Of a DNA stretch of 64,000 nucleotides, positions 35,352-49,414 are shown piece after piece. Positions within the stretch are counted from its first letter, which is position 1. Every line of letters starts with the position of its first letter. Made by a program: the position numbers and the translations under genes. The stretch is from positions 2,671 through 66,670 of the forward strand of contig PBMH01000047.1 in the NCBI GenBank assembly GCA_002722515.1. Direction: 5' to 3'. Origin of the DNA: Alphaproteobacteria bacterium (lineage in GTDB: Bacteria; Pseudomonadota; Alphaproteobacteria; UBA6615). The notes beneath the pieces are model-generated. The model was given only the letters and a program-made list of their open reading frames with translations, searched no databases and had not been told where the DNA came from.

Positions 35352-35906
35352 TTAAGAACAGCGTGCCTGACCCAACCAGCTATCACTGCGTCTTGCGCTC
35401 GACCACACTGTCACCGTCACATCAAACTTAGGATCAAAAAGGTCACGCCACGCACAAGCCACCTCTCGTGCTATCGTGTGCACCAGATAAGCATCGACCC
35501 CGTACTCGAGAACGATTGAAACCTGGTCGTCCGCCTCGACAGACACCTCGGAGAGATCACCGCGCTGCGAAACCCATTCGAGAAAGGCATTCTCGGCGTC
35601 ACCGAAGGTCGGCGCCATAAAATCCTTCGGCAGCCGAACGAAAAACCGGTGCACCCAGCCTGTTCTATCACTTCCATCAAAATCGCGGACATGAACCCAG
35701 CGGCCATCCTCATCGAAGGCACGCACCTTACTCCCGCGCTTTAGCTTACCAACAATCGGATGTTCTTCGCCCGGACCAGAACGCACGTTAAGAACCCGCA
35801 CATATACGGACGCTTCCCAGCTGCGCCGGGCCTCATTAGACACACCCGCACCACCCGCCAACAGCGGGACCGCGCAAAGAAACATGGCACATAAATATTT
35901 GTACAT
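35352..35906 (-). CDS. Secreted SH3-domain (SH3_3, bacterial) protein
   Basis: Signal peptide 'MYKYLCAMFLCAVPLLAGG' and 'VLNVRSGPGEEHPIVGKLKRGSKVRAFDEDGRWVHV', a bacterial SH3 pattern. Confidence 0.6.
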   Translation of the reverse strand: MYKYLCAMFLCAVPLLAGGAGVSNEARRSWEASVYVRVLNVRSGPGEEHPIVGKLKRGSKVRAFDEDGRWVHVRDFDGSDRTGWVHRFFVRLPKDFMAPTFGDAENAFLEWVSQRGDLSEVSVEADDQVSIVLEYGVDAYLVHTIAREVACAWRDLFDPKFDVTVTVWSSARRSDSWLGQARCS

Positions 35907-36330
35907 ATCCGGGTCCGTCTCCAGCAGACTGCCGGCGAGTCCCGAATGCACGGGCGTCATTTAAAAAGCGCCGACGCCTCGACCGACGTGCCGGAAACTA
36001 TGATTATGACACGGCCAACGAGTATCACATAATACACACGCAGAATCTATAAATTCGACACCTCCCGGTCTGGAGTTTGGGTATTTATACACGTCCGTCG
36101 GAAATGAAACGGAAAGGCCTATTTCAGCCTCACCGGGTAGCCTGTGATGCGTCTAATACGGGACCGCGCAACGTCAGGACAGACGAGGTCTTTGCGACCC
36201 TCTCGCCGAATTATCTGAAGACGCCCCCTATAGCAATCAAAGTCACGACTCACGTGAACCCGTTACCTTTGGCGCGGACACGGTACGCTTGAGCTAATTA
36301 TTGGTAACCAGAACTGAACGGGGAACGAAC

Positions 36331-37017
36331 ATGGCACGTCCAGACAAAATGCAGCATGCTGGCCAGGCGGCTGTCGACGCGGCGCGCGACACGGCGCATC
36401 ATCTACTAAATATTGGTGCAGTAAACTTCCGCCCGGAAGATCCCTACACATTCACATCGGGGCGGGTTAGCCCGAGTTATATCGACTGCCGCCATGTTAT
36501 CGCCTTCCCTTTAGCACGAGAGGCCATGACCGCACACGCGGTGGAACTAATCGACCGCGAGATCGGCCGCGATAATATCGATGTGATCGCGGGCGGTGAG
36601 ACGGCCGGCATCCCCTACGCTTCCTTCGTCGCAGTAGCGCTCGGAAAGCCTATGGTCTATGTCCGCAAGGAACCGAAGGGTTTTGGCCGAATGGCGCAGA
36701 TCGAGGGTGCCCTCGACGATGAGGCCCGTGTGCTGCTCGTGGAGGACCTCACCACAGACGGGGGTAGCAAGGTCCGGTTTATTGAAGCATTGCGCGCCGC
36801 AAGCGCACGGGTCGAGCACACCTACGTTGTCTTCCATTACGGGATTTTCACCGAGAGCCAAGCGACCATGGATGAACTCGGCGTCGAATTACACGCGCTA
36901 GCCACATGGTGGGATGTGCTCGATGCTGCCCGCGAGCAGAAAGCCTTCTCGGTTGAGCAACTCGATAGCGTCGAGTCCTATCTGCACGATCCCGATGGCT
37001 GGAAACCCATGGCATAA
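36331..37017 (+). CDS. pyrE: Orotate phosphoribosyltransferase
   Basis: 'FTSGRVSPSYIDCR' and the PRPP motif 'VLLVEDLTTDGGS'. I chose the ATG at 36331. Confidence 0.9.
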   Translation: MARPDKMQHAGQAAVDAARDTAHHLLNIGAVNFRPEDPYTFTSGRVSPSYIDCRHVIAFPLAREAMTAHAVELIDREIGRDNIDVIAGGETAGIPYASFVAVALGKPMVYVRKEPKGFGRMAQIEGALDDEARVLLVEDLTTDGGSKVRFIEALRAASARVEHTYVVFHYGIFTESQATMDELGVELHALATWWDVLDAAREQKAFSVEQLDSVESYLHDPDGWKPMA

Positions 37018-37061: not shown

Positions 37062-38015
37062 TCATCGGGGCAACGCTACGAAAGTGCCGTTGTTCCGCCG
37101 CGTGACCTCACGCATCAATGTTTCGAACCGACCTTTGGTCTGCAGCGAAATAAACCCGATCGCATGGACACGAGCCTTAGGCTCGCCGGTGATCCGGTTT
37201 TTGTTGAGCCGAGACAAAGTGTTGATCACCGGGTCATAGGATGACCCAGTGTAATCGTCACCGAAGATGTAGATAGAGACCTTCTCGTTTGCCTTCACAT
37301 AGCGCTTGAGCGCAACCTCTAACCCCTCGACCGGGCTCGAGTTGGATGCACTCGTCCACGACCGAAATACGTGAATTGCCCGATCGCGCGCGCCAGCAGT
37401 GTCCGGGATCCAGCGCCCACGATAACCGCTGATCAGATGGAAACCATTGTCGTTTAGCATCTGGAATCCTTTGATACGCGGATGGATACGGATGATTTTC
37501 TCGATCTCGCGGGTAACCCGGTCCCAAATGGACTGCATACTGCCCGAGGTGTCGACAACGAAGACGACATATTCGCTATCTACCGGAATGCCACCGACCT
37601 CACTATCGCGCGCAGCCGCCAAGGGTGCCGTGACCCCGGCGCGAGCTTGTTTCCGGAGCGCACGCTCCACGTTCCTCAGCCCCTCGACATCACGCGCGCG
37701 CTGTGCGGATTCGTTGCTCGCGGCCGTCAGCGCCCGTTCTGCCGCGTCGACCGACACGTCCTCTGCCCTGAGCCTAGCTCGGGCCTCCTCAAGGCGCACA
37801 GTTTCGCGCGCCAAAGCTACTTCCAATTGCTCGATACGCGCCTCGGTACCAATCAGACTTTGCAGAAGAGATGGAACCTCGTCAGCGCCCCCCGCTTCAT
37901 CCGATATTCCGAAGGGCGAGATCAGGACAAGCAGCACGATTGCTCCAAAACCGCAGGAGATGATATCGAGAAAGGAGAGGTTGAAAATCTCGAACTCAGA
38001 GCGTTTTCGCCTCAT
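37062..38015 (-). CDS. ExbD/TolR-like TM anchor + coiled coil + vWA (MIDAS) domain protein, paralogue 1 (system gene G)
   Basis: N-terminus 'MRRKRSEFEIFNLSFLDIISCGFGAIVLLVLI', then an A/E/R/L-rich helical region. The vWA domain has 'VVFVVDTSGSM' (DxSxS), 'IYIFGDD' and the C-terminal 'NNGTFVALP'. Confidence 0.75.
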   Translation of the reverse strand: MRRKRSEFEIFNLSFLDIISCGFGAIVLLVLISPFGISDEAGGADEVPSLLQSLIGTEARIEQLEVALARETVRLEEARARLRAEDVSVDAAERALTAASNESAQRARDVEGLRNVERALRKQARAGVTAPLAAARDSEVGGIPVDSEYVVFVVDTSGSMQSIWDRVTREIEKIIRIHPRIKGFQMLNDNGFHLISGYRGRWIPDTAGARDRAIHVFRSWTSASNSSPVEGLEVALKRYVKANEKVSIYIFGDDYTGSSYDPVINTLSRLNKNRITGEPKARVHAIGFISLQTKGRFETLMREVTRRNNGTFVALPR

Positions 38016-38028
38016 CGCAATATTCCGA

Positions 38029-39033
38029 TCATGGCCAGCTCCCGGCGGGACTGATCAGAATACCACCTGTTTCTGATGTCCACTTCCAGAACTCGTGCGA
38101 TGCCTGAGGGTCGCCCTCGATGGGTAGCAGAACCACGTTGACTCGCGCCGTTCCCAACCCAGTATTTCCGATCGTATGGCGAAGCAAACGAACCCGGCAA
38201 GCACCGGATATGGACGTCGCCCCACCCCATAACGCGCTGCAGTTGGAGAAGGGATTTAAGCTCCGGTAAACGCTATTACCCGCCGTCGGCAACCCGTCTG
38301 TGATCACATAGATATCAGTCGGCTGGAACGCGACCAGTGCAGCCAACCCCGCAGCCAAGTTCGTCGGGCCGCTAGGAACGACCGCATCGAGATCAGCCAG
38401 CACCCGGCCGAGACCAGTGGCATCATCACCGCGGACCACGTTGCCGAGGGGCCGGGCCTTGTCGCTAAACGCCACCACCCGTATTTCAGAGCGTTGGGGA
38501 ACGCGGGCGAGGAACCAGTTAACCACGCGCCGGGTCCGCACCCATTTGGGGCCTACCTGTTTGGCCGCAGAACCCATATTTTTGCGGCGGATCACGTCGA
38601 TCAAAAGCTCGTCAGTCATAGACGCGCTGGAATCCACCAGTACACCGATCCGCGTACCCTCGACCCGCAGCCCGACGATATAATTCTCGCTACTCGTAGG
38701 CACCGTTTTGATCACGTCGGGGTCCAGGGGAGCCTCAATCGCCGTGATGACCTGCTCCAGCGCATGGGCCACACGACCGCTGGCTGCAAGATTTTGGCGC
38801 TCCTGGTCAACCAAAGTCTTTAATCGCAAAAGTTCCGCGGCACGTGCGTCGAATTTCTCGGAGGTAATAGTATTTGCCTGCAAAACTGCCGTAATCTTTG
38901 CGTTCAGGTCGGCCTCGGTAGCTTCCATCCGAGTTAGATCCTCTCGCAGCCGGTCGCTCTCGACGGAGACGCTTTCGGTGTCAAGCTTCACCAGCATCAG
39001 CACAAGAATAATCGCCCCCAGCCCGCAGGACAT
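38029..39033 (-). CDS. ExbD/TolR-like TM anchor + coiled coil + vWA (MIDAS) domain protein, paralogue 2 (system gene F). The ATG at 39033 is the minimal ORF; the conserved frame extends to about 39084.
   Basis: 'MSCGLGAIILVLMLV', a helical region, then a vWA domain with 'GVLVDSSASM' (DxSxS) and 'IYVITDGLPT'. In-frame upstream codons read 'RRRRTPQGFNLAFLDI', matching the paralogue 1 N-terminus. Confidence 0.75.
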   Translation of the reverse strand: MSCGLGAIILVLMLVKLDTESVSVESDRLREDLTRMEATEADLNAKITAVLQANTITSEKFDARAAELLRLKTLVDQERQNLAASGRVAHALEQVITAIEAPLDPDVIKTVPTSSENYIVGLRVEGTRIGVLVDSSASMTDELLIDVIRRKNMGSAAKQVGPKWVRTRRVVNWFLARVPQRSEIRVVAFSDKARPLGNVVRGDDATGLGRVLADLDAVVPSGPTNLAAGLAALVAFQPTDIYVITDGLPTAGNSVYRSLNPFSNCSALWGGATSISGACRVRLLRHTIGNTGLGTARVNVVLLPIEGDPQASHEFWKWTSETGGILISPAGSWP

Positions 39034-39080
39034 GATGTCAAGGAAGGCAAGATTAAACCCCTGAGGTGTGCGCCGCCGCC

Positions 39081-39857
39081 TCAGTTCGAACCTGCTTTCG
39101 GGTCTCTAATCACACCGATTCGATTGAGCAGGAAGGATTCGCAATATTCCTGAGTGTCGACCAGCACCCCATCCTGCAGCCGCTGCAGCTGGTGTAGCAG
39201 AAACATCAGGACGATACTGATCAGGAGGGCAACGAAGGTGGAGTTGAAGGCCACCCCAAGGCTCTCAGTCATGCCAGATATATCACCCGCAAGCGCTTGG
39301 TCGGCTTGGGATAGCGCCTCGCCTATGCCACGCACAGTGCCGATGAAGCCGATCGCCGGGATCGCCCAGATCAGGTAGCGGATCAGAGAATTCTCGGCCT
39401 CCTGCTTCTGTGCTAGCGCATCTACACTCGCCTCGATTGTCTCAGACGTGCTGTGCACGTCGCCAGTGATTAAGAAGCGCCGCAGGCTCGCGGTCAGGGT
39501 ACGAAGTAGGTGCGCCCTACGAATTTTGTTCGGCAATGCCTCCAGAGTAGCCAAGGTCGCGGTCATGTCTTTGCCCTCGGCTCCATCAAGGAGATCGACA
39601 TTGAACAGATAACGCTCCCTCAGGAGCGCCAAACTTTTCTCAAAGATAAGGTATAGCCCCCAGAACATCAGGATGATCGAGATCTCCTGTTCCCAGTCCT
39701 TAAGGATTACCACTATGTTACGCGGCGCGCTCTGAGCAGCCGCTCGGGAAGCTTCGATCAGCGCAGTCGATTCCGGCCAGACATAGCCAACATAAAAAAT
39801 GTGCACAACGATGATCGAGACGATCAACGCGAGGGCATTCTTGGCGGCTTCAGGCAT
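39081..39857 (-). CDS. MotA/TolQ/ExbB-family proton channel protein (system gene E)
   Basis: 258 aa with three or more TM segments. The C-terminal 'WAIPAIGFIGTVRGIGEAL ... GVAFNSTFVALLISIVLMFL' matches the MotA_ExbB channel core pattern. Confidence 0.8.
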   Translation of the reverse strand: MPEAAKNALALIVSIIVVHIFYVGYVWPESTALIEASRAAAQSAPRNIVVILKDWEQEISIILMFWGLYLIFEKSLALLRERYLFNVDLLDGAEGKDMTATLATLEALPNKIRRAHLLRTLTASLRRFLITGDVHSTSETIEASVDALAQKQEAENSLIRYLIWAIPAIGFIGTVRGIGEALSQADQALAGDISGMTESLGVAFNSTFVALLISIVLMFLLHQLQRLQDGVLVDTQEYCESFLLNRIGVIRDPKAGSN

Positions 39858-39885
39858 TATGTGATCCCTGTTTTTGGCGTGGCGG

Positions 39886-40059
39886 CTAAATGTCGACCGG
39901 GAAGGAGACGGGAGAATTCAGGCTTAGTGAGATTGAGGACTGAGCATAAGCGACCCCGAGAACTCCCAATGCTGCAGCGAGGGCCACGAATATTACCAGC
40001 GCGCGACGGCCGCGAGGCGACCAATTATTTAATTCTCTATTCTGGCGTGATTTCGCCAT
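39886..40059 (-). CDS. Small (57 aa) signal-peptide/TM protein, not listed as its own ORF in the track (system small ORF)
   Basis: 'MAKSRQNRELNNWSPRGRRALVIFVALAAALGVLGVAYAQSSISLSLNSPVSFPVDI'. The ATG at 40059 is preceded by GGGAGA at 7-nt spacing. The ORF fills the only sizeable gap in the operon, and its basic-hydrophobic-AxA pattern is signal-peptide-like. Confidence 0.5.
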   Translation of the reverse strand: MAKSRQNRELNNWSPRGRRALVIFVALAAALGVLGVAYAQSSISLSLNSPVSFPVDI

Positions 40060-42079
40060 GCAGATATCTCCCGATTCTGAAACCAACATCGTCGCGCTCG
40101 TTAGATACTCCGTCTCGGTAGGCTGCACGTAGCGTCGACCGGTTGCCCGACCGCCAACTCGATCCTCGTACCACATGAGAATCGCCAAAGGCGGGACCGA
40201 GCGGATCACGCACAACAACACCCTTCGCCGGCGGCTTCAACGAATACCAGTCATGGACCCACTCGCTGACATTTCCTGTTAGGTCGAAAAGACCCGATGC
40301 CTCAGCCGCAAAACGCCCGACCGGAGCAATCCGTGCATATCCGTCATTGTAGTTGGGGACGAAACTACGGACTAAGCCGTTGGCGGATTCATCCGCAATA
40401 TTGCCCGTGCCGAGCTGCACCGTCGCCACGTTACCCCACGGGAAGATGGTGCGAACCGGACGTCCAGCCTTTCGGGCGAGCCATTCCCATTCGGCCTCAC
40501 TCAACAGCCGGTAGCCGTCTGCGCGCGGGTTGATCCCGCGCATCCGACCACCTGCAAGATCATAAAAGGGCACGAGCCCTTCTTTTGTGCTCAACCAATT
40601 GGCGAATGTCGCAGCATCTTGCCAACTTACCCCGCTCACAGCGTGGTCCGGAGGGCCTCCGCGACCACCTCGAAACAACGCCACCTGTCCGTTGGTCGTC
40701 TCATGCTTTGCGGCATAGAACGGACGTGTCAACCAAACATGACGCTCGAACTCGTTAGCCCGCTGGCCAATCTCGTGGCGCGGTGCACCCATGACGAATT
40801 TATCGTTGGGCTCGAACAGCACGAGCTCCATACCTATGCTGTTGGTGTAGACGCGCGGGGCCTCGGCGAGCAGGACCGTCGCCTCGGGAAGCAACGTCTC
40901 ACGAATTGCCAACGGACGGGTAGACGACGGCACCACGTTCCGGATGATTTCTCTATAGCCGTCCCGGCGTAATTCGATCTTTACGGGTACCGCAGGCAGC
41001 TCGAGTGTTGCGCTTCCTTTGCCCTGCAGTCTGTTATCTACATAAATCTCCGCCGCCGGATCAGTCACAATCTCAACCAACCCAAGGTCCACAGCAAGCC
41101 CCAGTCTTATAGTTCTCACCTCGTCTGGATGGAGCTGCACCGTCAGGGTTTTACCCTTATAACCATCAAGCAGATACACGATCGTGTGGTCCGTTGAGGC
41201 GCTAACCTGATAAGCTTTTTCCGGGTCCACCCGGCGTCCATCAACCAGCAATTCACCACCCGACGGCGCAACATCAAACTGCAGCGTCGCCGCGAAGGGC
41301 AGCAGTCGATAATCGCGCGCCACATTCGGCTGATCGTTGGTGATCCGAACCACATCCCCCAATGTTTTCCGGCCCGGCGCAGTGACCGTAACACTATATT
41401 CACCACCATCTAGACTACGGTTGAGTGGCGTAGTTCCGGCATCCACACCTGCGATCTTTACCGCTGCGCCAGCCGGTTGTGAGACGACCGTCAGTTGCCC
41501 AACGACCGGCGTCAACGCAATCGCGACCTCGGTCGTTTCGCCCCGAACCAGTTCAACCGTCCGGCTGACCGGGATGAAAAACGGATGGTCAACCGTCACG
41601 TCGTGTGAGCCAGCTTGACCCTTCACATCGAGCATCGGGCCGACCATGATACGTCGTCCGTCGAACGACCAGCGGCTGTCATCACGTGGCGGCAGTGTCC
41701 TCGCAAGAACCCGACCGGGCAGCGGCATGAGAGTCACAGTGACCCGCCGCCCTCTTTCCTCGGGCAAAATGGTACGTCGGATCTCCTTAAACCCCGGTGC
41801 CGAGATCCGCAGCAACGGTGTCCGGGAGATGGTGTATACCGCGTCGCCTACTGTCACACCGATGCCCTCCGCGAGCACTATCTTGCTCGCCGGTTCGGCC
41901 TCGGGCGGTAGTATCGTCACTCGGATCGCATTGGTCGAGGGAAGAACCAACGCGACAGCCGCTACCGCCACCAACAAAACGACCAAAGCGATGATATAAA
42001 GCCGCACTTGGCGTGCGCGCGCGGTGCGCAGACCTTTCTCAAACTCAAGCTCGGGCTCAAATTCGTTCATTTGGAACAA
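40037..42079 (-). CDS. TM-anchored PEGA-repeat protein with a C-terminal FGE-sulfatase (SUMF1/EgtB/PvdO-type) domain (system gene D)
   Basis: TM helix 'LYIIALVVLLVAVAAVALVL' and four or five PEGA-like beta-sandwich repeats (for example 'LTVVSQPAGAAVKIAGVDAGTTPL...GEYSVTVTAPG'). The C-terminal domain shows 'GVSWQDAATFANWLS...GYRLLSEAEWEW...TGNVSEWVHDWY...VVRGSSW...DVGFRIGR'. An alternative start is the ATG at 42070. Confidence 0.8.
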   Translation of the reverse strand: MFQMNEFEPELEFEKGLRTARARQVRLYIIALVVLLVAVAAVALVLPSTNAIRVTILPPEAEPASKIVLAEGIGVTVGDAVYTISRTPLLRISAPGFKEIRRTILPEERGRRVTVTLMPLPGRVLARTLPPRDDSRWSFDGRRIMVGPMLDVKGQAGSHDVTVDHPFFIPVSRTVELVRGETTEVAIALTPVVGQLTVVSQPAGAAVKIAGVDAGTTPLNRSLDGGEYSVTVTAPGRKTLGDVVRITNDQPNVARDYRLLPFAATLQFDVAPSGGELLVDGRRVDPEKAYQVSASTDHTIVYLLDGYKGKTLTVQLHPDEVRTIRLGLAVDLGLVEIVTDPAAEIYVDNRLQGKGSATLELPAVPVKIELRRDGYREIIRNVVPSSTRPLAIRETLLPEATVLLAEAPRVYTNSIGMELVLFEPNDKFVMGAPRHEIGQRANEFERHVWLTRPFYAAKHETTNGQVALFRGGRGGPPDHAVSGVSWQDAATFANWLSTKEGLVPFYDLAGGRMRGINPRADGYRLLSEAEWEWLARKAGRPVRTIFPWGNVATVQLGTGNIADESANGLVRSFVPNYNDGYARIAPVGRFAAEASGLFDLTGNVSEWVHDWYSLKPPAKGVVVRDPLGPAFGDSHVVRGSSWRSGNRSTLRAAYRDGVSNERDDVGFRIGRYLHGEITPE

Positions 42080-43556
42080 TCTCCAGTACCAAGTCTGTCC
42101 GCCCCGGGGCGATGTCGATACGGATCAAAATCGCCTGAAACCCTGCACGAATACCCTCAAATGTGTAACGCCCCGGTCGTAACTCGATGGTCCTGTCGGT
42201 CACAAAGCCAACAATGCCCACCCCGCGCACGGTGATGTTAGTCACTCCATCCGACAAGATCCGTACCGGAACTTTAACGGCATAAGCTTTCACAAGGGTC
42301 GCAAGTTCATCGGCCCGGGCCGCAAGGCGCGGACTAAACTCGCGATACTCGGCAACCGCTGATACAATTGCGCTAGCATCTTTGGAAACCGCTGCGGAGG
42401 CTAGCCGTTCGGGCGCGGCCAGGTGCCGGCCGGTGCGCGCATCGAGACCATTTATCGACTGAGCACGGGCCAGTTCGTCAGCAATCATACGTCCAGCCGG
42501 GGTAAGGCGCCGGGCCTTCACATATGCCTGTTCCGCTGCACGCCAATCATCAACCTGCGCAGCCGCACGCGCGGTTTCGATCAGTCGCTCGATCATCAGT
42601 TCGACCTGTAATGCTGCAATCTTTTCGTCCAATACACCTATCTCGGTGCGACCGGCATAGATAGCGCGAGCCGCCGCCAAGCTGCGCCGGGCCGCCACAA
42701 GATCGCGCCCGTCCACTCGTTTCAGGCCATCCGCGATATGCCGGGTAAACTTCTCCTCACCAATCAGGCGGCGTACCTCATCCGCTCTCTGCACCAATCC
42801 CATCCGCGCGGGATCGATATTGAGGGCCTCCGCGAGATGACTTGCCTCGGCGGTGAGGTTGTTCTCGACCCGTGCAACGGCGGCCGCCGCAATTTTCTTT
42901 AGAAGCGCTGGTAACGCATCGATACGTATCTTTAAGGCTGCCGCAGGTTTGGATTCGGGCCGTAGGTCGAGGGCGCGGTCAATTGCCAGCGAGGCACTGT
43001 CATAATTATCCTCCGCGAAAGCTGCGTCCGCCGCTGCGAACGCATCACCAAACGCCCTATCGCGCTCGGCCAAAACCGTCTCGGCATCCTCTCGCACAGC
43101 CGCAAGTGCGGTTGTCGCTTCGCTATAGGATCCCGAGCTAAACAGGAAGATCGCCTGATCCTTAGCATCAAGAATCCTGAGCTGGGAAACGGGATCCCAG
43201 CTAGCGAAATTATTATGGACTATGCGCGGTTCTATCTCCGCCTGAAAAGCGGCTAGACCGACCTTAAATACCGCACGAGCCGATTCTTTCGTAGCAGTAT
43301 TGGTGAGGTTCTGCACAGAAACCAACGGATCAGGGATGACCGGTGGCACGGGCGTCAAACCCATTATAGGAGTTTTTGGCGTCTTGGACATGCCTTCCGC
43401 CACGGGCATGGAATCCGGCCGGAGGAACTCGCGAATAACAAGGATCCCAGTATAGGCCAATACCAGAACCGCCAAACCCAAGGCTATGCCAATTGTGAGC
43501 TGCAAACGGCGGTGTCGAACCGCTCGGCCTTCCTGTTCTAACTTGTCTTTCAGCAT
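42057..43556 (-). CDS. TM-anchored helical-repeat (TPR-like) protein with a C-terminal PEGA-like beta-sandwich (system gene C)
   Basis: TM helix 'LTIGIALGLAVLVLAYTGILVI' and an Ala-rich helical region with TPR-like units ('DNYDSASLAIDRALDLRP', 'DDWRAAEQAYVKARRLTP'). The C-terminus reads 'VPVRILSDGVTNITVRGVG...LRPGRYTFEGIRAGF'. Confidence 0.6.
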   Translation of the reverse strand: MLKDKLEQEGRAVRHRRLQLTIGIALGLAVLVLAYTGILVIREFLRPDSMPVAEGMSKTPKTPIMGLTPVPPVIPDPLVSVQNLTNTATKESARAVFKVGLAAFQAEIEPRIVHNNFASWDPVSQLRILDAKDQAIFLFSSGSYSEATTALAAVREDAETVLAERDRAFGDAFAAADAAFAEDNYDSASLAIDRALDLRPESKPAAALKIRIDALPALLKKIAAAAVARVENNLTAEASHLAEALNIDPARMGLVQRADEVRRLIGEEKFTRHIADGLKRVDGRDLVAARRSLAAARAIYAGRTEIGVLDEKIAALQVELMIERLIETARAAAQVDDWRAAEQAYVKARRLTPAGRMIADELARAQSINGLDARTGRHLAAPERLASAAVSKDASAIVSAVAEYREFSPRLAARADELATLVKAYAVKVPVRILSDGVTNITVRGVGIVGFVTDRTIELRPGRYTFEGIRAGFQAILIRIDIAPGRTDLVLEIVPNERI

Positions 43557-43570
43557 AGGCGTTGAGTGGT

Positions 43571-44809
43571 CTAGAGCTTGACGTTAGGGGTACGTTCTTC
43601 CTCGAAGACTCTTTGCAGGAAGGCTCGCCACTGTGCGAACTGCTCCTTGGCTGTACCGGTTAACTCGACGGTCTTCTCTTCAAACGCCACCACCCGTGGC
43701 GCAAGATCGATGTCGATCGACTGACCAAGCTCCTCAAGCGCTTCGCGATGGACTTCAGCTTCCTTGCTAGTTTGGAAGCTATTCGACAGCAGGGTCGCAC
43801 CGACCGTGCCAGCAACCACGCCGCCAGTCAGGCCAGCAGTCTGTCCAGCATACGAACCCGAATTAGCTCCAGCAATAATAGCCAACACACCCAAGCCGAT
43901 TGTTAATGCACCGAGAACTGCCTCACCGACAGCCTCCTCATTGGCCTCCCGGCGTGCTTCAACTTCCAATAGGCTCTGTTCCTGCCAAATCAGGTAGCTG
44001 TCCTGCATCTCAACGCTGAACGCTCGGTAGTGCTCCTGCAAACCGTCCACGAACAACTGATCTCGTACCCGAACAGCCCTTGTGCGCTCCAGCATCGGAT
44101 CGCTATCACTGGGAAAGCTCAACAGAGAGACCGTATTTCGTCCCGCCTTGAGATGCTCCGCGAACGCCTCCTCGGTGAAGTTTGAGCCGAACCGCAGTTC
44201 AGTTAGACGGCTCAAATTGTTCAGCTCGGCGATCGAATAATCATCCAACTCTAGGGCCACGCGGTTTGCAGCCTCCTCGAACACCGGGTCATAGGGGTCC
44301 ACCCCCTCATTGCGCGTGTTCTTGTGAAATCCTGATGACACCGAGTGATCGAAATCACGAACGAACCAGCGCGTGCCGGAAATATCGGTAACTTCGATCC
44401 TAATCTCGACGTCCCCGCCGTTAGATTCGAGTATCTCTCCCTCCACATACAAGTCGCCTGTGGCGCTGGCATCCGGGGTCACACGCACCGCCCCGAAGGC
44501 ACCGGTCTTCTCCAGCGCCTCCTTAAGCTTAAGCGCGAAACGGTTCGCCTCGGCCCGGCGCAACTCCGGCCAGACGCCCTCTTCCTCATAGCTTTGCCCT
44601 GCATCCGAGAGACCGGGATCAAACACGGGCACGACCACATCCAGGCGCGGCTTCGCCGGATCAACCCGCGCCTTACCCTTGGGGTCGAAAAGGGACGATA
44701 ACTGCGGTCCGACGCTCGGGCCGGGCCCGGTTCCGTTCGTCACGCAGCCCGTCAGTATGAAGCAGGCGCAAAGAGTATAGACGCCGATCTTGCGAAGTAA
44801 CGATTGCAT
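43571..44809 (-). CDS. Lipoprotein with a C-terminal glycine-zipper segment (system gene B)
   Basis: Lipobox 'ILTGC' at residues 18-22 and the Gly-zipper 'GALTIGLGVLAIIAGANSGSYAGQTAGLTGGVVAGTVGA'. I recognise no catalytic motif. Confidence 0.6.
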   Translation of the reverse strand: MQSLLRKIGVYTLCACFILTGCVTNGTGPGPSVGPQLSSLFDPKGKARVDPAKPRLDVVVPVFDPGLSDAGQSYEEEGVWPELRRAEANRFALKLKEALEKTGAFGAVRVTPDASATGDLYVEGEILESNGGDVEIRIEVTDISGTRWFVRDFDHSVSSGFHKNTRNEGVDPYDPVFEEAANRVALELDDYSIAELNNLSRLTELRFGSNFTEEAFAEHLKAGRNTVSLLSFPSDSDPMLERTRAVRVRDQLFVDGLQEHYRAFSVEMQDSYLIWQEQSLLEVEARREANEEAVGEAVLGALTIGLGVLAIIAGANSGSYAGQTAGLTGGVVAGTVGATLLSNSFQTSKEAEVHREALEELGQSIDIDLAPRVVAFEEKTVELTGTAKEQFAQWRAFLQRVFEEERTPNVKL

Positions 44810-44830
44810 GTTTATCTCCGTCGATCCGGC

Positions 44831-45616
44831 CTAGTTTGATATAGGTAGTCCCTTATAGCGACGATACTCGTCCCACAGGCGTTTTTTAAGCTCCAGATCA
44901 GTCTCTTCCATGGCCGCCTTACGTATCTGCATCTCCAGCGCGCTGTCATTATCAGCAGATGGAATATCCTCCGGCAGCTTGCCGTTGTCCTGAGTACGCA
45001 TGGCCTTGAGCTCGGGTTCATCGCCCGGTAGCTGGTCAGCCTCAACCGTGCTACCCGGTGTCGTGTTATCCACGCCTTCCGTGAGCTCCCCGCTGGCTTC
45101 CGTATTCGCCGGCGTCGACGCCATGACAGCGGCTTCATCACCCGATATATCGCCGGTCACCGCAGAATCACCTACCTGTGGGCCTTCCGCCTCCAGTTCA
45201 CTGGAGCCCGAGATATCGCCCGCCGCGGTCGAAGTCTGGCTGCCGTCGTGCTCAGCGCTATCCGCCGTGCCCGAGATACCGGATACACCACGACCGTTAT
45301 GATCCAAACCGCCACCAGTCAAACTAGCGCCTGTCGCGGCACCTAACCGTTGGGTTTGGCATTCCTCGAACCGGCTCAGGGAGTACTGAAAAGCGCGGTC
45401 CATCCGCGCAATCCGTTCCGCGCGAGTTAGGCCCGGCTCGTCAACATAGTCGACGGAGATCTCAGTACAGTCATGGGAGAGTCCGCCCGGACCGCGGTTC
45501 ACCGCTTCGGACCATGGGGAATCCGCCTGCGACCAAACAGGCGTAACACCTATGGTCAATAGGCATAACAGAGCCAGCAGAATCTTGAGTTGTCCGGACT
45601 TAGACCCAATTGTCAT
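44831..45616 (-). CDS. Secreted protein with a long acidic Ser/Gly/Thr/Glu/Asp-rich low-complexity centre (system gene A)
   Basis: Signal peptide 'LKILLALLCLLTIGVTPVWS', a short Cys-containing folded N-terminal region, an acidic low-complexity stretch with repeated 'GDISG', and the C-terminal helix 'LELKKRLWDEYRRYKG'. Confidence 0.55.
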   Translation of the reverse strand: MTIGSKSGQLKILLALLCLLTIGVTPVWSQADSPWSEAVNRGPGGLSHDCTEISVDYVDEPGLTRAERIARMDRAFQYSLSRFEECQTQRLGAATGASLTGGGLDHNGRGVSGISGTADSAEHDGSQTSTAAGDISGSSELEAEGPQVGDSAVTGDISGDEAAVMASTPANTEASGELTEGVDNTTPGSTVEADQLPGDEPELKAMRTQDNGKLPEDIPSADNDSALEMQIRKAAMEETDLELKKRLWDEYRRYKGLPISN

Positions 45617-45648
45617 CTCAACACTCTAATCCAATGTCCATTTAAGAG

Positions 45649-45678
45649 ATTGTAACGCCATCGTCGCGGAAACCCCAA
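45649..45678 (-). promoter_or_regulatory. Possible sigma-70-type promoter for the eight-gene operon (TTGGGG-18 nt-TACAAT on the minus strand)
   Basis: On the minus strand, TACAAT (plus-strand 45649..45654) and TTGGGG (45673..45678) are separated by an 18-nt spacer. They lie about 30 nt upstream of the ATG at 45616. This is pattern match only. Confidence 0.3.
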
Positions 45679-45836
45679 AAGACGTCGGCTATATACACGG
45701 GACCGCCGAAATAAGGCTATTTTCCGGCTACCACGCTCTACGATCTTGGCTTTTCGCGTAATCCCGTGCTAGAAGGCGCCTCCCCCTTGGGGACGGCATC
45801 GGAAATCGCGTAAAAACGCGGGGTTCGGGCTGAGGT

Positions 45837-46064
45837 TTGCGGAAGGGGGTGATTCCTATCGTCCAGGTCGTAGTTCGTGACAACAATGTCGACCAGGCGC
45901 TGAAGGCGCTAAAAAAGAAAATGCAGCGCGAAGGCGTATTTCGCGAGATGAAGCTGCGGCGCTCCTATGAGAAGCCGTCGGAAAAACGCGCCCGCGAAAA
46001 GGCGGAAGCAGTTCGTCGGGCTCGGAAGCTCGCGCGCAAACGTAAGGAACGCGACGGGTTTTGA
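45837..46064 (+). CDS. rpsU: 30S ribosomal protein S21
   Basis: '[56 protein letters not shown]' is canonical S21. The start is uncertain: TTG 45837, GTG 45849, or closer to the 'QVVVRD' core. Confidence 0.9.
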
Positions 46065-46173: not shown

Positions 46174-47577
46174 CTAGTGGCCGCCGCCTTTGAGCGCTTT
46201 GACTATATCCTCGCACATCTTCTTTGCATCAGCGAATAGCATCATTGTGTTGTCTTCGTAGAAGAGCGGGTTATCGATGCCGGCATAGCCAGAGGCCAGA
46301 GATCGCTTGATAAACAGTACTGTGCCCGATTCCTCAACGTTAAGAACCGGCATGCCGTAGATTGGGCTCGACTTATCGGTCTTAGCAGATGGGTTGGTGA
46401 TGTCGTTGGCGCCGATCACAAAGGTTACGTCAGTGCCGGAGAAGTCCGAGTTGATCTCATCCAACTCGAAGACCACATCATACGGCACGCTAGCCTCGGC
46501 CAGAAGAACATTCATATGACCAGGCATGCGACCCGCGACGGGATGGATTGCATAGCGCACCTCCACGCCCTTTTCTTCCAACACCTGCGCCATCTCTGCT
46601 AGAGCGTGCTGCGCTTGGGCCACCGCCATGCCGTAACCCGGTACGATGATGACTTTGTCGGCCTGCTCCATGATGAAGGCGGCATCATCCGCTGCACCTT
46701 GGCGCACCGTCCGGTCGCCGAGATCCTCCAAGCCGGGTGCCACCGTCTCGCCGCCGAAGCCTCCCAAAATCACGTTGAAGAAAGAGCGGTTCATGCCTTT
46801 GCACATGACGTAGCTAAGTATCGCGCCCGATGAGCCGACCAATGCGCCGACGATAATCAGCGCCGGATTTCCAAGGGTGAAGCCGATACCGGCCGCTGCC
46901 CAGCCCGAATAAGAGTTGAGCATCGAGACGACGACCGGCATGTCGGCGCCGCCGATGGGTACAATGATCAGGACGCCGATCACCAGCGACAGCACGACGA
47001 TCACCCAGAACGCGGTCTCGGACTGGCTGACCGACAGCCAGGCGACGCAAAAGATGAGTGCAATGCCAAGGCACAGATTGACGATGTGCTGACCCGGGAA
47101 CACCAGCGGCTTGCCCGGCAGGATGCCCTGCAGCTTGCCGAATGCGATAATGGAACCGGTGAAGGTGATCGCACCGATAGCCGTGCCTATCGACATCTCG
47201 ATCAGGCTGGCGATTTTAATATCGCCCACCGAGCCAATGCCGTAGGCCTCAGGCGAGAAGAACGCCGCGCCGGCGACGAACACCGCGGCCAAGCCAACCA
47301 ACGAATGGAAGGCGGCGACCAGCTGCGGCAGCGCGGTCATGGCGATTTTTAGCGCGATGATAGCACCTAGAACGCCGCCGATGGCGATGCCGAGAGCTAT
47401 GGTGCCGAGCGAGGTCACGCTGGGCAGTGCCAGGGTTGTCAGGATGGCAATAACCATGCCGGCGATGCCGTAGACGTTGCCCATCCGCGCGGTCTTGGGC
47501 GAGCTCAGCCCACGCAGCGCCATGATGAAACACACGCTGGCGATCAGGTATGCGAAAGCTGTCATTGAAGCGGACAT
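46174..47577 (-). CDS. pntB: NAD(P) transhydrogenase subunit beta
   Basis: 467 aa with a polytopic N-terminal half and the C-terminal NADP(H) domain 'IIVPGYGMAVAQAQH...VRYAIHPVAGRMPGHMNVLLAEA'. Confidence 0.95.
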   Translation of the reverse strand: MSASMTAFAYLIASVCFIMALRGLSSPKTARMGNVYGIAGMVIAILTTLALPSVTSLGTIALGIAIGGVLGAIIALKIAMTALPQLVAAFHSLVGLAAVFVAGAAFFSPEAYGIGSVGDIKIASLIEMSIGTAIGAITFTGSIIAFGKLQGILPGKPLVFPGQHIVNLCLGIALIFCVAWLSVSQSETAFWVIVVLSLVIGVLIIVPIGGADMPVVVSMLNSYSGWAAAGIGFTLGNPALIIVGALVGSSGAILSYVMCKGMNRSFFNVILGGFGGETVAPGLEDLGDRTVRQGAADDAAFIMEQADKVIIVPGYGMAVAQAQHALAEMAQVLEEKGVEVRYAIHPVAGRMPGHMNVLLAEASVPYDVVFELDEINSDFSGTDVTFVIGANDITNPSAKTDKSSPIYGMPVLNVEESGTVLFIKRSLASGYAGIDNPLFYEDNTMMLFADAKKMCEDIVKALKGGGH

Positions 47578-47590
47578 GTCTGGCGCTCTG

Positions 47591-48004
47591 CTACTTTTTC
47601 GCGCGGAACATCGCGAGCATGCGCTGCGTCACGATAAATCCGCCAAAAATGTTCACCGATGCGAGGATTACAGCGATGAACCCGAAAGTCTTGGAGATGT
47701 TCCACTCGTCCGGACCGGCCGCAATCAACGCACCGACGATGATCACCGAAGAGATAGCATTGGTAACAGCCATCAATGGCGAATGCAGCGCCGGAGTGAC
47801 GCTCCAGACCACGTAGTAGCCGACGAAGACGGCCAGCACGAAGACAGTGAAAAGGAAGACGAAGGGATCGCCGCCACCTGCGGTCTGGGCCAACGCAAGC
47901 TGGGTCGCGTCTTGGGCCAGCGCGCCGGCTCTGTCCGCAATGCTCTGCGCCTCGCTGGCGAGCTGGGCGGCGTTCTCGGAAAGAGTCGAAGGTTCCATGA
48001 TCAA
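47591..48004 (-). CDS. pntAB: NAD(P) transhydrogenase subunit alpha, part 2 (membrane)
   Basis: 137 aa with '[39 protein letters not shown]', typical of the small alpha-2 subunit. It overlaps pntAA by 4 nt. Confidence 0.9.
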
Positions 48005-49194
48005 GCTCCCGATTCGGATGAAGTGTCGTCGTCGCTTTCGGCCTCGGCCGGAACCAGGGCCGGATGCACCAACTTGCCGTCGCGCGTCAAGCAGCTGCCA
48101 ACGATAATTTCATCTTCCCAGTCGATCACGATCTTCTTCTCGTCCTTGTCTACAATCAGCTCAACGAAATTCAATAGGTTACGCGAATAAAGCGCCGAGG
48201 TGTCCGCGGCCAACTGCGAAGGCAGGTTGAGTTCGGCCAGGATCGTTACGCCGTTCTCGGTCGTGTGCTTCTCACCCGGCTTCGTCTGGGTGCAGTTGCC
48301 ACCCTGCTCCGCAGCGATGTCGACAATCACCGAACCGGATTTCATCGACGCGACCATATCGTCATTGACCAGCACCGGCGCAGGGCGCCCGGGAATCAGA
48401 GCCGTCGTGATAACGATGTCTTGGTCCTTGATATGGTCCGCGATCAGTTCGGCTTGGCGGCGCTTATAGTCGTCCGACATCTCCTTGGCATAGCCGTCCT
48501 CGGTCTGTCCTGTGTCACCCTCGTCGGGCTCGACCATTACAAAAGACGCACCGAGGCTCTCGACCTCTTCCTTGGCGGCCATGCGCACGTCCGTAGCAGA
48601 CACGATCGCGCCCATGCGGCGCGCAGTGGCGATCGCCTGAAGGCCGGCGACGCCAGCCCCCATGACGAAGACCTTGGCTGGATTGATACGACCGGCGGCA
48701 GTCATCAGCATCGGCATGCCGCGGCCGTAATTGGCAGCACCGTCGATCACAGCCTTATAGCCGGTCAGGTTCGACTGGGAACTTAGCACATCCATCGACT
48801 GGGCCCGACTGATGCGCGGCAGCATCTCCATGGAAAATGCGGTGATGTAGCGCTTTGCGTAGGCCTCGACACCTGACCGGTCGCCATAGGGATTCTGCAG
48901 CGCAATCAGAATCGCGCCCTCGGGCACGTCCGACAGGCCGTCATCGCCTTCGGCCTCGGTCAGCGGCCGCTGCACCTTGAGCACGATGTCCGCGCCGGTC
49001 AGCGCATCGGCGCGACCCGACACAACGGTCGCACCGGCGTCACTGTAGTCGACGTCGGAAATTGATGCCCCTTCGCCGGCGCCGCTCTCTACGGTGACAT
49101 CGAAGCCCCATTGTAGGTAGCGTTTGATCGTATCGGGGGTCGCAGCCACGCGGCGTTCATGCGGGCGGCGTTCCTTTGCAATCGCGATCTTCAT
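48001..49194 (-). CDS. pntAA: NAD(P) transhydrogenase subunit alpha, part 1 (dI, AlaDH/PNT domain)
   Basis: '[21 protein letters not shown]' start and the Rossmann motif '[22 protein letters not shown]'. I prefer the ATG at 49194. Confidence 0.9.
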
Positions 49195-49414
49195 GATGAG
49201 AAGAACCTCGGTTCGAACCAAATTACGCAGGGATGTTAAACACCCGTGCCACGCAGTTTTCAACGCGGGGCGAATATGCAGCGCTGCGGCACGCAGGGCA
49301 AGCGGCAACCCGGTGCGGTTCCCTCATTCTTTCAGGTCCTCGCGGCCTGTTCTTCGTGTGTCGAGCCTGCTAGTCAGGTCCACAGAGCATTGCGCGACCC
49401 ATGCGGAGGAATCC

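Follow-up and report, generated by a model that had tools for sequence, protein, structure and literature searches.

Ion-driven motors of 5:2 subunit stoichiometry power flagella, Ton-dependent uptake, Tol-Pal-assisted division, gliding, type 9 secretion and Zorya defence, and to our knowledge each newly characterised user of such a motor has brought a new cellular process to light. The present analysis concerns a cluster of eight adjacent genes, designated A, B, C, D, s, E, F and G, in a 64,000-nt stretch of contig PBMH01000047.1 from an alphaproteobacterium of the UBA6615 lineage (hereafter the window). Its products include a MotA/ExbB-type channel subunit (E) and two different transmembrane (TM) proteins with vWA domains (F and G), and the cluster probably represents a complete, strongly conserved parts list for another machine of the 5:2-motor kind.

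The closest described relatives are found in a purely computational study by Williams-Jones et al. (2025, Mol Biol Evol; PMC12204202), which reports that TM-tethered vWA proteins co-occur tightly with tolQ homologues and without tolR or exbD. These proteins, mostly present as heterologous pairs, possess a trans-pore helix that resembles that of TolR/ExbD and contains a conserved Asp, and AlphaFold3 (AF3) models of Idiomarina homologues seat two such helices inside a TolQ-like pentamer, with the Asp residues in a ring of Thr. The family was seeded with Idiomarina loihiensis and occurs mainly in Proteobacteria; the three-gene core occupies one paragraph and one figure panel (section 8, Fig. 4c-d), where no function or phenotypes are given. 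The text of that paper makes no mention of sulfatase, PEGA or formylglycine, nor of a TPR protein, a lipoprotein, an acidic secreted protein or a microprotein. Two related surveys of MotAB and Ton/Tol motors likewise do not mention vWA partners, and no description of the full cluster was found in the literature searched. A further relevant system is the Agl-Glt motor, AglR5QS, which has two non-identical TolR-like subunits (AglQ and AglS) and on which the FHA domain of GltG docks (PMC11761067).

The C-D-E-F-G cluster of the window recurs in Idiomarina sp. A28L, I. rhizosphaerae, I. aminovorans, Aliidiomarina and Pseudidiomarina, and for this reason the E-F-G core is assigned to the trans-pore-helix vWA (TPH-vWA) family of PMC12204202, a link made through these other Idiomarina genomes and not through the I. 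loihiensis seed sequences. The window displays the arrangement by which that family is defined, namely a tolQ-like gene adjoining a heterologous pair of vWA genes with Asp-bearing helices and no tolR or exbD. A first-pass annotation of this DNA had considered the whole cluster a candidate undescribed system. This does not apply to the E-F-G core, which was predicted in PMC12204202, but it stands for A-D and s; the literature searched mentions neither these nor a long variant with an Hsp70-like/FHA protein. Three observations appear to be new, namely the conserved partners (A-D and s), the CTG start of F coupled to E, and the variant with the FHA protein.

The predicted E-F-G motor core

The eight genes probably specify a single trans-envelope machine, built around a MotA/ExbB-type ion-driven motor (E5:F-G) that acts on periplasmic and outer-membrane partners. 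The interpretation of E-F-G as a motor driven by the proton motive force (PMF) draws on the family membership of E, on the invariance of key Asp and Thr residues, on the strict F-G pairing and on the lack of any other B-type subunit; it further draws on the apparent translational coupling of E and F and the published AF3 models of homologues (PMC12204202). The presence of two different B-type subunits in one motor has a precedent in AglR5QS (PMC11761067). From these features we infer the 5:2 stoichiometry and the coupling to PMF.

E matches the Pfam family MotA_ExbB (PF01618) with 51.2 bits against a curated cut-off of 22.9 (E-value 1.4e-13) over residues 130-231, which cover the C-terminal TM hairpin. 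Its earlier designation as a MotA/TolQ/ExbB-type channel is therefore sound, and the precomputed annotation of the Thalassomonas viridans homologue is also MotA_ExbB. An alignment of 38 sequences reveals that Thr174 and Thr207 are invariant. In MotA/TolQ/ExbB channels, polar Thr residues on two pore-lining helices face the Asp of the partner subunit. The spacing of 33 residues between the two is that of T148/T181 in E. coli ExbB and T145/T178 in TolQ, which, from this spacing alone, we take to be the equivalent positions. Hydropathy analysis shows four hydrophobic segments conserved in the family (residues 8-26, 61-79, 157-179 and 202-220), the second of which is preceded by a conserved LKDWEQE motif; the topology suggested is MotA-like, with four TM helices, rather than the three of ExbB/TolQ. 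E fell into none of the named subfamilies (MotA, ExbB, TolQ, ZorA or AglR), the best NCBIfam scores being MotA1 (E 0.0014), ZorA (0.008) and ExbB (0.014), all far below their cut-offs. Apparent in-frame fusions of E and F in two loci (L044 and L080) were discarded, since a stop codon separates the two genes.

F consists of an Arg-rich N-terminus, a TM helix, a coiled coil of approximately 90 residues and a vWA domain. The family alignment reveals that Asp16, situated in the TM helix within FLDIMSCGLGA, is invariant, as are all the residues of the metal-ion-dependent adhesion site (MIDAS): D151-x-S153-x-S155, T241 and D263. The Pfam VWA_2 profile scores F just below its cut-off (26.3 bits vs 27; E 1.2e-5); among the homologues, that of Pseudoalteromonas denitrificans reaches 30.9 bits (4.6e-7), and that of T. 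viridans carries VWA_2 in its precomputed annotation.

G possesses a TM helix with an invariant Asp17 within FLDIISCGFGA, a single long helix (residues 46-126) and a vWA-fold domain (140-317). The two TM helices share the motif FLD(I/V)(M/I)(S/A)CG(L/F)GA. At the MIDAS of G, D155 is at least 90% conserved, T156, S157, S159 and D253 are invariant, and S226/S227 occupy the Thr position. Pfam yields a weak vWA signal around the DxSxS motif of G, and its family profile matched nothing among PDB sequences except coiled-coil noise. The AlphaFold2 (AF2) model of G, with a predicted local distance difference test score (pLDDT) of 85-92 in the C-terminal domain, was compared by Foldseek; the top structures are vWA domains, namely ANTXR2/CMG2, ITIH1 and Cav alpha2delta (E 2.7e-7 and below, the value for ANTXR2/CMG2 being 2.7e-7), and TM-scores reach 0.69 against isolated vWA chains. 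A vWA domain with an intact MIDAS, as proposed earlier for both proteins, is thus borne out by profile in F, by predicted fold in G, and by the conserved metal-site residues. Alignment of the two family profiles with hhalign gives a probability of 99.4% (E 2.8e-21) spanning the TM helix, coiled coil and vWA core, and therefore F and G are paralogues, as the first-pass annotation had stated. From the profiles and the fold of G, the periplasmic part of both proteins is a helix plus vWA and not an ExbD/TolR or OmpA-like domain. One G-like region was seen at residues 442-698 of a protein of 699 amino acids (P0446), about twice the usual length, which may represent G fused to another component.

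The start of F needed revision. The conserved N-terminus of the family, (L/M)RRRRxxxGFNLAFLDIMSCGLGA, which includes the invariant Asp by which a helix of the MotB/ExbD/TolR type is defined, lies 5′ of the first ATG at 39033, and between the upstream stop codon and that position the window has no ATG, GTG or TTG in the F frame. The homologous start position is occupied in the window by a CTG at 39084, which overlaps the TGA stop codon of E. Across 77 non-redundant loci the codon found at this position is CTG (33), ATG (27), GTG (5) or TTG (4), and in 19 of the 33 CTG loci it overlaps the E stop. Because the conserved N-terminus precedes the first ATG, and this is the only start available there, F most likely begins at CTG 39084 and comprises 351 residues. 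The CTGA overlap suggests translational coupling of the motor subunits. It also represents an annotation trap: when F is called from the first ATG, the functional Asp of the TM helix is lost.

Conservation and distribution

Three scans of species-representative genomes revealed approximately 180 loci, and a fourth scan, based upon a DNA pattern, at least 120 more. Co-occurrence was counted at 119 non-redundant loci with at least 9 kb of sequence upstream of G. D, E and F are each present in 117 of these, B and C each in 115, and A, next to B, in 106; all seven larger genes occur in 104 of the 119, and in every one of the 104 they are colinear and on one strand. Chance cannot account for an association of this extent. 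The eight-gene operon is real and strongly conserved, F and G are obligatorily co-occurring paralogues, and the eight genes travel together across phyla. Gene-neighbourhood profiling of this kind had been suggested when the cluster was first noted.

The order A-B-C-D-(s)-E-F-G was found by tblastn in at least seven major lineages. In the Alphaproteobacteria the carriers are Rhodospirillaceae and others, including the cultured Sneathiella, and in the Gammaproteobacteria they are Arenicellales, Alteromonadales, Cellvibrionales/Halieaceae, Steroidobacteraceae and Nevskia; the cluster is also found in Zetaproteobacteria (Mariprofundus), Nitrospirales, Ca. Binatia, Desulfobacterota and Acidobacteriota. 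In the complete genome of T. viridans the same seven genes are called, and their Pfam domains agree with those of the window. Directly 3′ of the cluster in that genome (CP059733.1; L184:11363-12910) are a gene of the SymE toxin family and a Fic-domain gene, which probably are unrelated local context. In a metagenome-assembled genome (MAG) of the Rickettsiales (L119:4076-12426) the cluster is rearranged, D-E-F-G coming first and C, B and A lying after it in the reverse orientation, from which it follows that the two halves stay together even where colinearity is broken.

Homologues of G form 307 protein clusters (50% identity) at E<=1e-30, and none was found among 72,556 plasmids and 50,697 phage records. 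Close relatives retain the pyrE/pntAB context, and the GC content of the cluster is that of its flanks; the non-mobile, core-type setting proposed at first sight of the sequence agrees with this.

A long variant of the cluster also exists. Between E and F, 34 loci encode a protein of 415-470 residues (X), examples of which are found at L169:7601-8896 (Pseudoalteromonas denitrificans), L052:10762-12054 and L154:7658-8914; the groups that carry it include Nevskia, Halieaceae, Steroidobacteraceae, P. denitrificans, Acidobacteriota and Desulfobacterota. According to its profile, X is weakly Hsp70/actin-like in the N-terminal region and ends in an FHA domain, which was detected in 12 of 33 members (best E 1e-13). 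Part of the long-variant loci possess, 3′ of G, two lipoprotein genes (25 and 19 loci) and a gene for an M48 peptidase (18 loci); these genes, H/I/J, are exemplified by L169:11049-13922. The window contains no counterparts of X or H/I/J.

Accessory proteins

C and D are predicted to be inner-membrane-anchored periplasmic proteins, B is a predicted lipoprotein, and A and s carry predicted signal peptides. From these signals, from generic domains and from strict co-inheritance we infer that all five are periplasmic or outer-membrane partners of the motor.

A is the most divergent protein of the cluster. It has a net charge of -23 and, by hydropathy and charge, a signal peptide; the family alignment reveals an N-terminal helical module with a conserved pair of Cys residues, a variable Gly/Ser/acidic linker and a conserved acidic C-terminal motif (NGKxPEDIPPxDNDSVLEAQIRxAAxxETDPxxKxKLWNEYRKYKGLP). 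No match to A was found in Pfam, NCBIfam or PDB. B, the homologues of which are all annotated as "hypothetical," possesses a lipobox (LTGC) with an invariant Cys22 and, at its N-terminus, an alpha/beta domain; it further contains long helices and, at approximately residues 295-350, a hydrophobic "zipper" rich in Gly, in agreement with its initial description as a glycine-zipper lipoprotein. No Asp follows the lipobox Cys, and B is therefore probably sorted to, and anchored in, the outer membrane. Its AF2 model has a mean pLDDT of 71, with at least 90 in the N-domain and poor modelling of the Gly-rich hydrophobic segment; no sequence match to B was found in Pfam, NCBIfam or PDB.

In C, an N-terminal TM helix (residues 22-40) precedes TPR repeats, predicted to lie in the periplasm, and a beta domain that is conserved at the C-terminus. 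The profile of its family (44 members) matches consensus TPR structures with E 2.4e-18 to 1e-12, and TPR_2 and TPR_14 are recognised in 14 and 10 of the 44 members, respectively. Of the proposed layout of TM helix, TPR-like region and beta-sandwich, the TPR repeats hold at the family level only, those of the window copy alone being below threshold. When its C-terminal domain was compared with PEGA, hhalign gave a probability of 9.9%.

D consists of a TM helix (residues 27-45), PEGA beta-sandwich repeats (Pfam PEGA, 85.9 bits, 1.8e-24) and a C-terminal FGE-sulfatase domain of C-type-lectin-like fold (PF03781, 104.4 bits vs a cut-off of 23.3, 1.1e-29). Both domains had been recognised from the start, but the catalytic Cys pair of the formylglycine-generating enzyme (FGE) is missing: D contains no cysteine at all, and the possibility that it is such an enzyme was ruled out. 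The FGE-fold domain is best regarded as a lectin-like module that binds a ligand and has no enzymatic activity. The PDB sequence matches of D are fold-generic (FGE 1e-11, PvdO, TvpA, and PorK 7.6e-9). A special relationship to GldK/PorK was likewise rejected, as both the NCBIfam and PDB scores are of this generic kind and the resemblance is one of analogy only.

The microprotein s has a basic N-terminus, a helix resembling a signal peptide (AYA|Q) and a strictly C-terminal motif, SLNSPVSFPVDI. An open reading frame (ORF) of the same build, ending in ...SLNSPxSFPVDI, lies in the D-E gap of 77 of 78 non-redundant loci, and longer versions ending in ...SFPVDI are found directly before E in 51 of 64 distant loci. 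No Pfam match was found for s. What had been listed as a 57-residue signal/TM ORF is thus a real and universal component.

Proposed mechanism

In the mechanism that we envisage, five E subunits would surround one F-G heterodimer, and the Asp residues of F and G would face the conserved Thr174/Thr207 ring, as in MotAB, ExbBD and TolQR. The flow of protons (or other ions) would turn or displace the F-G pair, and a helical stalk of about 80 residues (approximately 12 nm) would carry the two vWA heads toward the peptidoglycan and the outer membrane. The MIDAS sites would there grip an acidic ligand, for which the acidic C-terminal module of A and the ...SFPVDI-COOH tail of s, through its carboxylate or its Asp, are speculative candidates. 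It is equally speculative that the TPR domain of C clamps this tail, the motif serving as a peptide ligand for TPR or vWA domains. C and D could form a scaffold that binds peptidoglycan or another glycan, with B as the outer-membrane anchor. In this way, much as in Tol-Pal or Agl-Glt, a target in the outer envelope would be subjected to force derived from the PMF; candidate processes are the tethering or remodelling of the outer membrane and the handling of a surface polymer or adhesin. For the biological role, we incline to a mechanical one in the envelope, comparable to that of Tol-Pal or Agl-Glt.

Several observations weigh against a single motor-driven machine of this type. The profile of E retrieved from PDB only MotA of B. 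subtilis (6YSL), weakly (E 0.08), and no ExbB or TolQ structure, which places E in a divergent subfamily. In the case of F and G, the ExbD profile (PF02472) did not match F, and its match to G (13.3 bits, cut-off 25.4) does not fall on the TM helix; of the original designation as ExbD/TolR-like, the Asp-bearing N-terminal TM helix stands and membership of the ExbD family does not. The roles of A, B, C, D and s derive from export signals, generic domains and co-inheritance, and the Foldseek matches of the B N-domain, to LptE (E 1e-3) and the N-domain of TolB (0.01-0.04), are weak. The single-transcript model is likewise provisional, since the scans revealed neither a terminator after G nor a sigma-70-like promoter upstream of A; the single plausible promoter that had been postulated there was not supported by the consensus scan. 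Lastly, a MAG of the Verrucomicrobia (L171:9992-10993) contains a lone G homologue with 38% identity and intact FLD and DTSGS motifs, and no homologue of E, F or A-D within approximately 10 kb on either side; this G could be an orphan, or its partners could be supplied in trans.

We propose tentatively, as a possibility that falls a little short of an even balance, that the cluster (with X, H, I and J in its long variant) represents a new class of trans-envelope machine distinct from Mot, Ton, Tol-Pal, Agl-Glt, the type 9 secretion system (T9SS) and Zorya, in which a MotA-like pentamer would drive a vWA heterodimer that grips a dedicated secreted ligand, either A or s. If true, this class would act mechanically on the outer membrane or the cell wall, and would constitute a new envelope function widespread in marine and sediment Gram-negative bacteria. 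It is unusual that the inner subunits of a motor bear integrin-like, metal-dependent binding domains, and two different ones. Cultured and sequenced carriers include T. viridans, P. denitrificans, Bowmanella denitrificans, Alteromonas, Glaciecola, Idiomarina and Sneathiella, and the presence of the cluster in such strains renders the role of vWA force transducers directly testable. To potentially stimulate such research, the hypotheses offered are the F-G heterodimer, the involvement of Asp16/Asp17 and Thr174/Thr207, the candidate MIDAS ligands in A and s, and the CTG-coupled start of F.

Comparison with known systems and alternative explanations

The cluster resembles Tol-Pal in its predicted inner-membrane motor of the 5:2 type, in the genes for a TPR protein, a periplasmic protein and a probable outer-membrane lipoprotein that accompany it, and in lying among housekeeping genes of the chromosome. 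C might tentatively be assigned a CpoB-like role, and the N-domain of B weakly recalls that of TolB. In contrast to Tol-Pal, profile searches with the eight products reveal no TolA, TolB beta-propeller or OmpA-like Pal; a coiled coil with vWA takes the place of the TolR periplasmic domain, there are two different inner subunits, and the similarity of E to TolQ is not detectably greater than that to MotA.

With the T9SS proteins GldK/L/M/N (PorK/L/M/N) the cluster shares the gene order of an FGE-sulfatase-fold protein, a motor A subunit and a periplasm-spanning B subunit, the coupling, here predicted, of a 5:2 motor to an FGE-fold protein and, for D, a best NCBIfam match to GldK. This match (TIGR03525, 59.4 bits vs a cut-off of 350) is at the domain level only; D is TM-anchored, carries PEGA repeats and, having no lipobox, is not a lipoprotein. 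E belongs to the MotA_ExbB family whereas GldL does not, and neither a GldM/GldN fold nor GldL/M/N or other T9SS genes are found here. Bat/MoxR-vWA operons (BatA-E) similarly combine two TM-anchored vWA proteins with a TPR protein. Unlike these, the eight products include no MoxR AAA+ ATPase or DUF58 protein, and the vWA proteins possess an Asp-bearing helix of the motor type and adjoin a MotA/ExbB channel.

Profile searches of the eight products likewise revealed no ExbD/TolR, TonB/TolA, OmpA-like, ZorC/D, nuclease or ATPase gene, in line with the absences, including that of MoxR, first noted from the translations. The defining parts of Tol-Pal, Agl-Glt, GldLM and Zorya are missing, and the first-pass annotation had likewise not recognised the cluster as any of these. 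Profile and fold searches back the MotA/ExbB and vWA assignments, the gene set is conserved as a neighbourhood, and the cluster matches no characterised named system.

The long variant invites a different interpretation, in which E-F-G would be part of a trans-envelope signalling device, an ion-gated switch or sensor whose vWA heads report a periplasmic ligand (A, s or a D-bound glycan) to the cytoplasm. Many loci insert the cytoplasmic Hsp70/actin-like plus FHA protein between E and F, and the FHA domain, which binds phosphopeptides, is a typical signalling module. Furthermore, vWA and lectin-like FGE-fold domains serve as ligand sensors elsewhere (PMC7159879). The version found in the window, however, encodes neither an FHA protein nor a kinase, nor an output domain of any other sort in the cytoplasm; invariant Asp and Thr residues in such a constellation are the hallmark of ion-translocating motors, and in Agl-Glt an FHA domain sits on a true motor (GltG). 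We regard signalling as an unlikely principal function.

The motor-driven machine that we favour might instead serve surface adhesion or gliding, as an Agl-Glt-type focal-adhesion apparatus whose motor shifts a vWA adhesin module with respect to the cell wall. The parts list parallels that of Agl-Glt (PMC11761067, PMC9946355): TPR proteins, lipoproteins, a small disordered periplasmic protein and a vWA protein (CglB) are present in that system, and its FHA domain at the motor is matched in the long variant. Gliding was also raised for vWA force transducers in PMC12204202, in the passage on its first, TolA/TonB-like vWA family. The likeness drawn here is one of parts and not of sequence orthology. 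In Agl-Glt the vWA domain resides on a surface lipoprotein, whereas here it is fused to the inner-membrane subunits, from which a stalk of approximately 12 nm cannot reach the cell surface; in addition, the cluster has no Glt barrels of the GltA/B/H type, TonB-C domains or cytoplasmic MglA/AglZ/GltI partners, and many of the hosts belong to planktonic marine lineages. Adhesion or gliding is, in our opinion, quite improbable.

A somewhat more doubtful proposition is that the complex energises import or export across the outer membrane, either in uptake of the Ton kind or at a secretion gate, F/G then standing in for ExbD as well as for TonB. The logic would be that of ExbBD-TonB, where PMF is transduced to the outer membrane, and PMC12204202 classes the vWA proteins as putative force transducers beside TonB and TolA; the N-domain of B is, moreover, weakly similar to LptE, the plug lipoprotein of an outer-membrane barrel. 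Yet no TonB-dependent receptor, other barrel or substrate-related gene is conserved beside the cluster, and no TonB-box-binding domain is present.

An anti-phage or conflict system of the Zorya type, in which a MotAB-like complex senses envelope perturbation, shares with this cluster a MotA/MotB-like 5:2 ion-driven complex outside motility, vWA and FGE-fold domains that recur in predicted conflict systems (PMC7159879), and weak ZorA matches of E (PADLOC, E 0.002-0.04, amounting to noise, with none for the other cluster proteins), but was rejected as the principal explanation and is highly improbable, since there is no effector gene (nuclease, ATPase or ZorC/D/E), no significant PADLOC match, no long ZorA cytoplasmic tail, no ZorB peptidoglycan-binding domain and no association with mobile elements, plasmids or phages, while the GC content matches the flanks, close relatives keep the cluster by pyrE and pntAB, the gene order holds strictly even between phylogenetically distant lineages, which is not so in defence islands, and the accessory proteins are all periplasmic.

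Locus layout and flanking genes

All eight ORFs proposed in the first-pass annotation were found on the minus strand (Table 1). The spacings that it gave were largely accurate, with gaps of 21, 14, 28 and 13 nt and the C/D and D/s overlaps; the exception is the 47-nt gap between E and F, which is in fact the 4-nt overlap.

Table 1. Coordinates of the cluster features within the window.
Feature	Position	Strand	Description
A	44831-45616	minus	ORF; 261 aa, secreted acidic protein
B	43571-44809	minus	ORF; 412 aa, lipoprotein
C	42057-43556	minus	ORF; 499 aa, predicted bitopic inner-membrane TPR protein
D	40037-42079	minus	ORF; 680 aa, predicted bitopic inner-membrane PEGA + FGE-sulfatase-fold protein
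s	39886-40059	minus	ORF; 57-aa microprotein; overlaps D end, stop 28 nt before E
E	39081-39857	minus	ORF; 258 aa, MotA/ExbB/TolQ-superfamily channel subunit
F	38029-39084 (revised start; listed from first ATG as 38029-39033)	minus	351 aa, TM + coiled coil + vWA
CTGA overlap	39081-39084	minus	Probable CTG start of F overlapping TGA stop of E
G	37062-38015	minus	ORF; 317 aa, paralogue of F
A-rpsU divergent intergenic region	45617-45836		220 nt, presumed operon promoter region

No Rfam family matched the intergenic region between A and rpsU. The boundaries of the operon are placed at A and G because the flanking genes are conserved only among close relatives, and a comparison of neighbours across loci revealed, for the short variant, no extra conserved genes beyond these two. 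The flanks are of the housekeeping type, as previously noted: pyrE, which ends at 37017, converges on the cluster, whereas rpsU, on the other side, points away from it and starts at 45837, followed by pntB/pntA. The transhydrogenase at 46174-49308 consists of a split pntA (435 and 137 residues) plus pntB. On the far side of pyrE from the cluster, a 202-residue protein (35352-35960) exhibits a weak SH3-and-anchor match; both loci represent ordinary housekeeping context.

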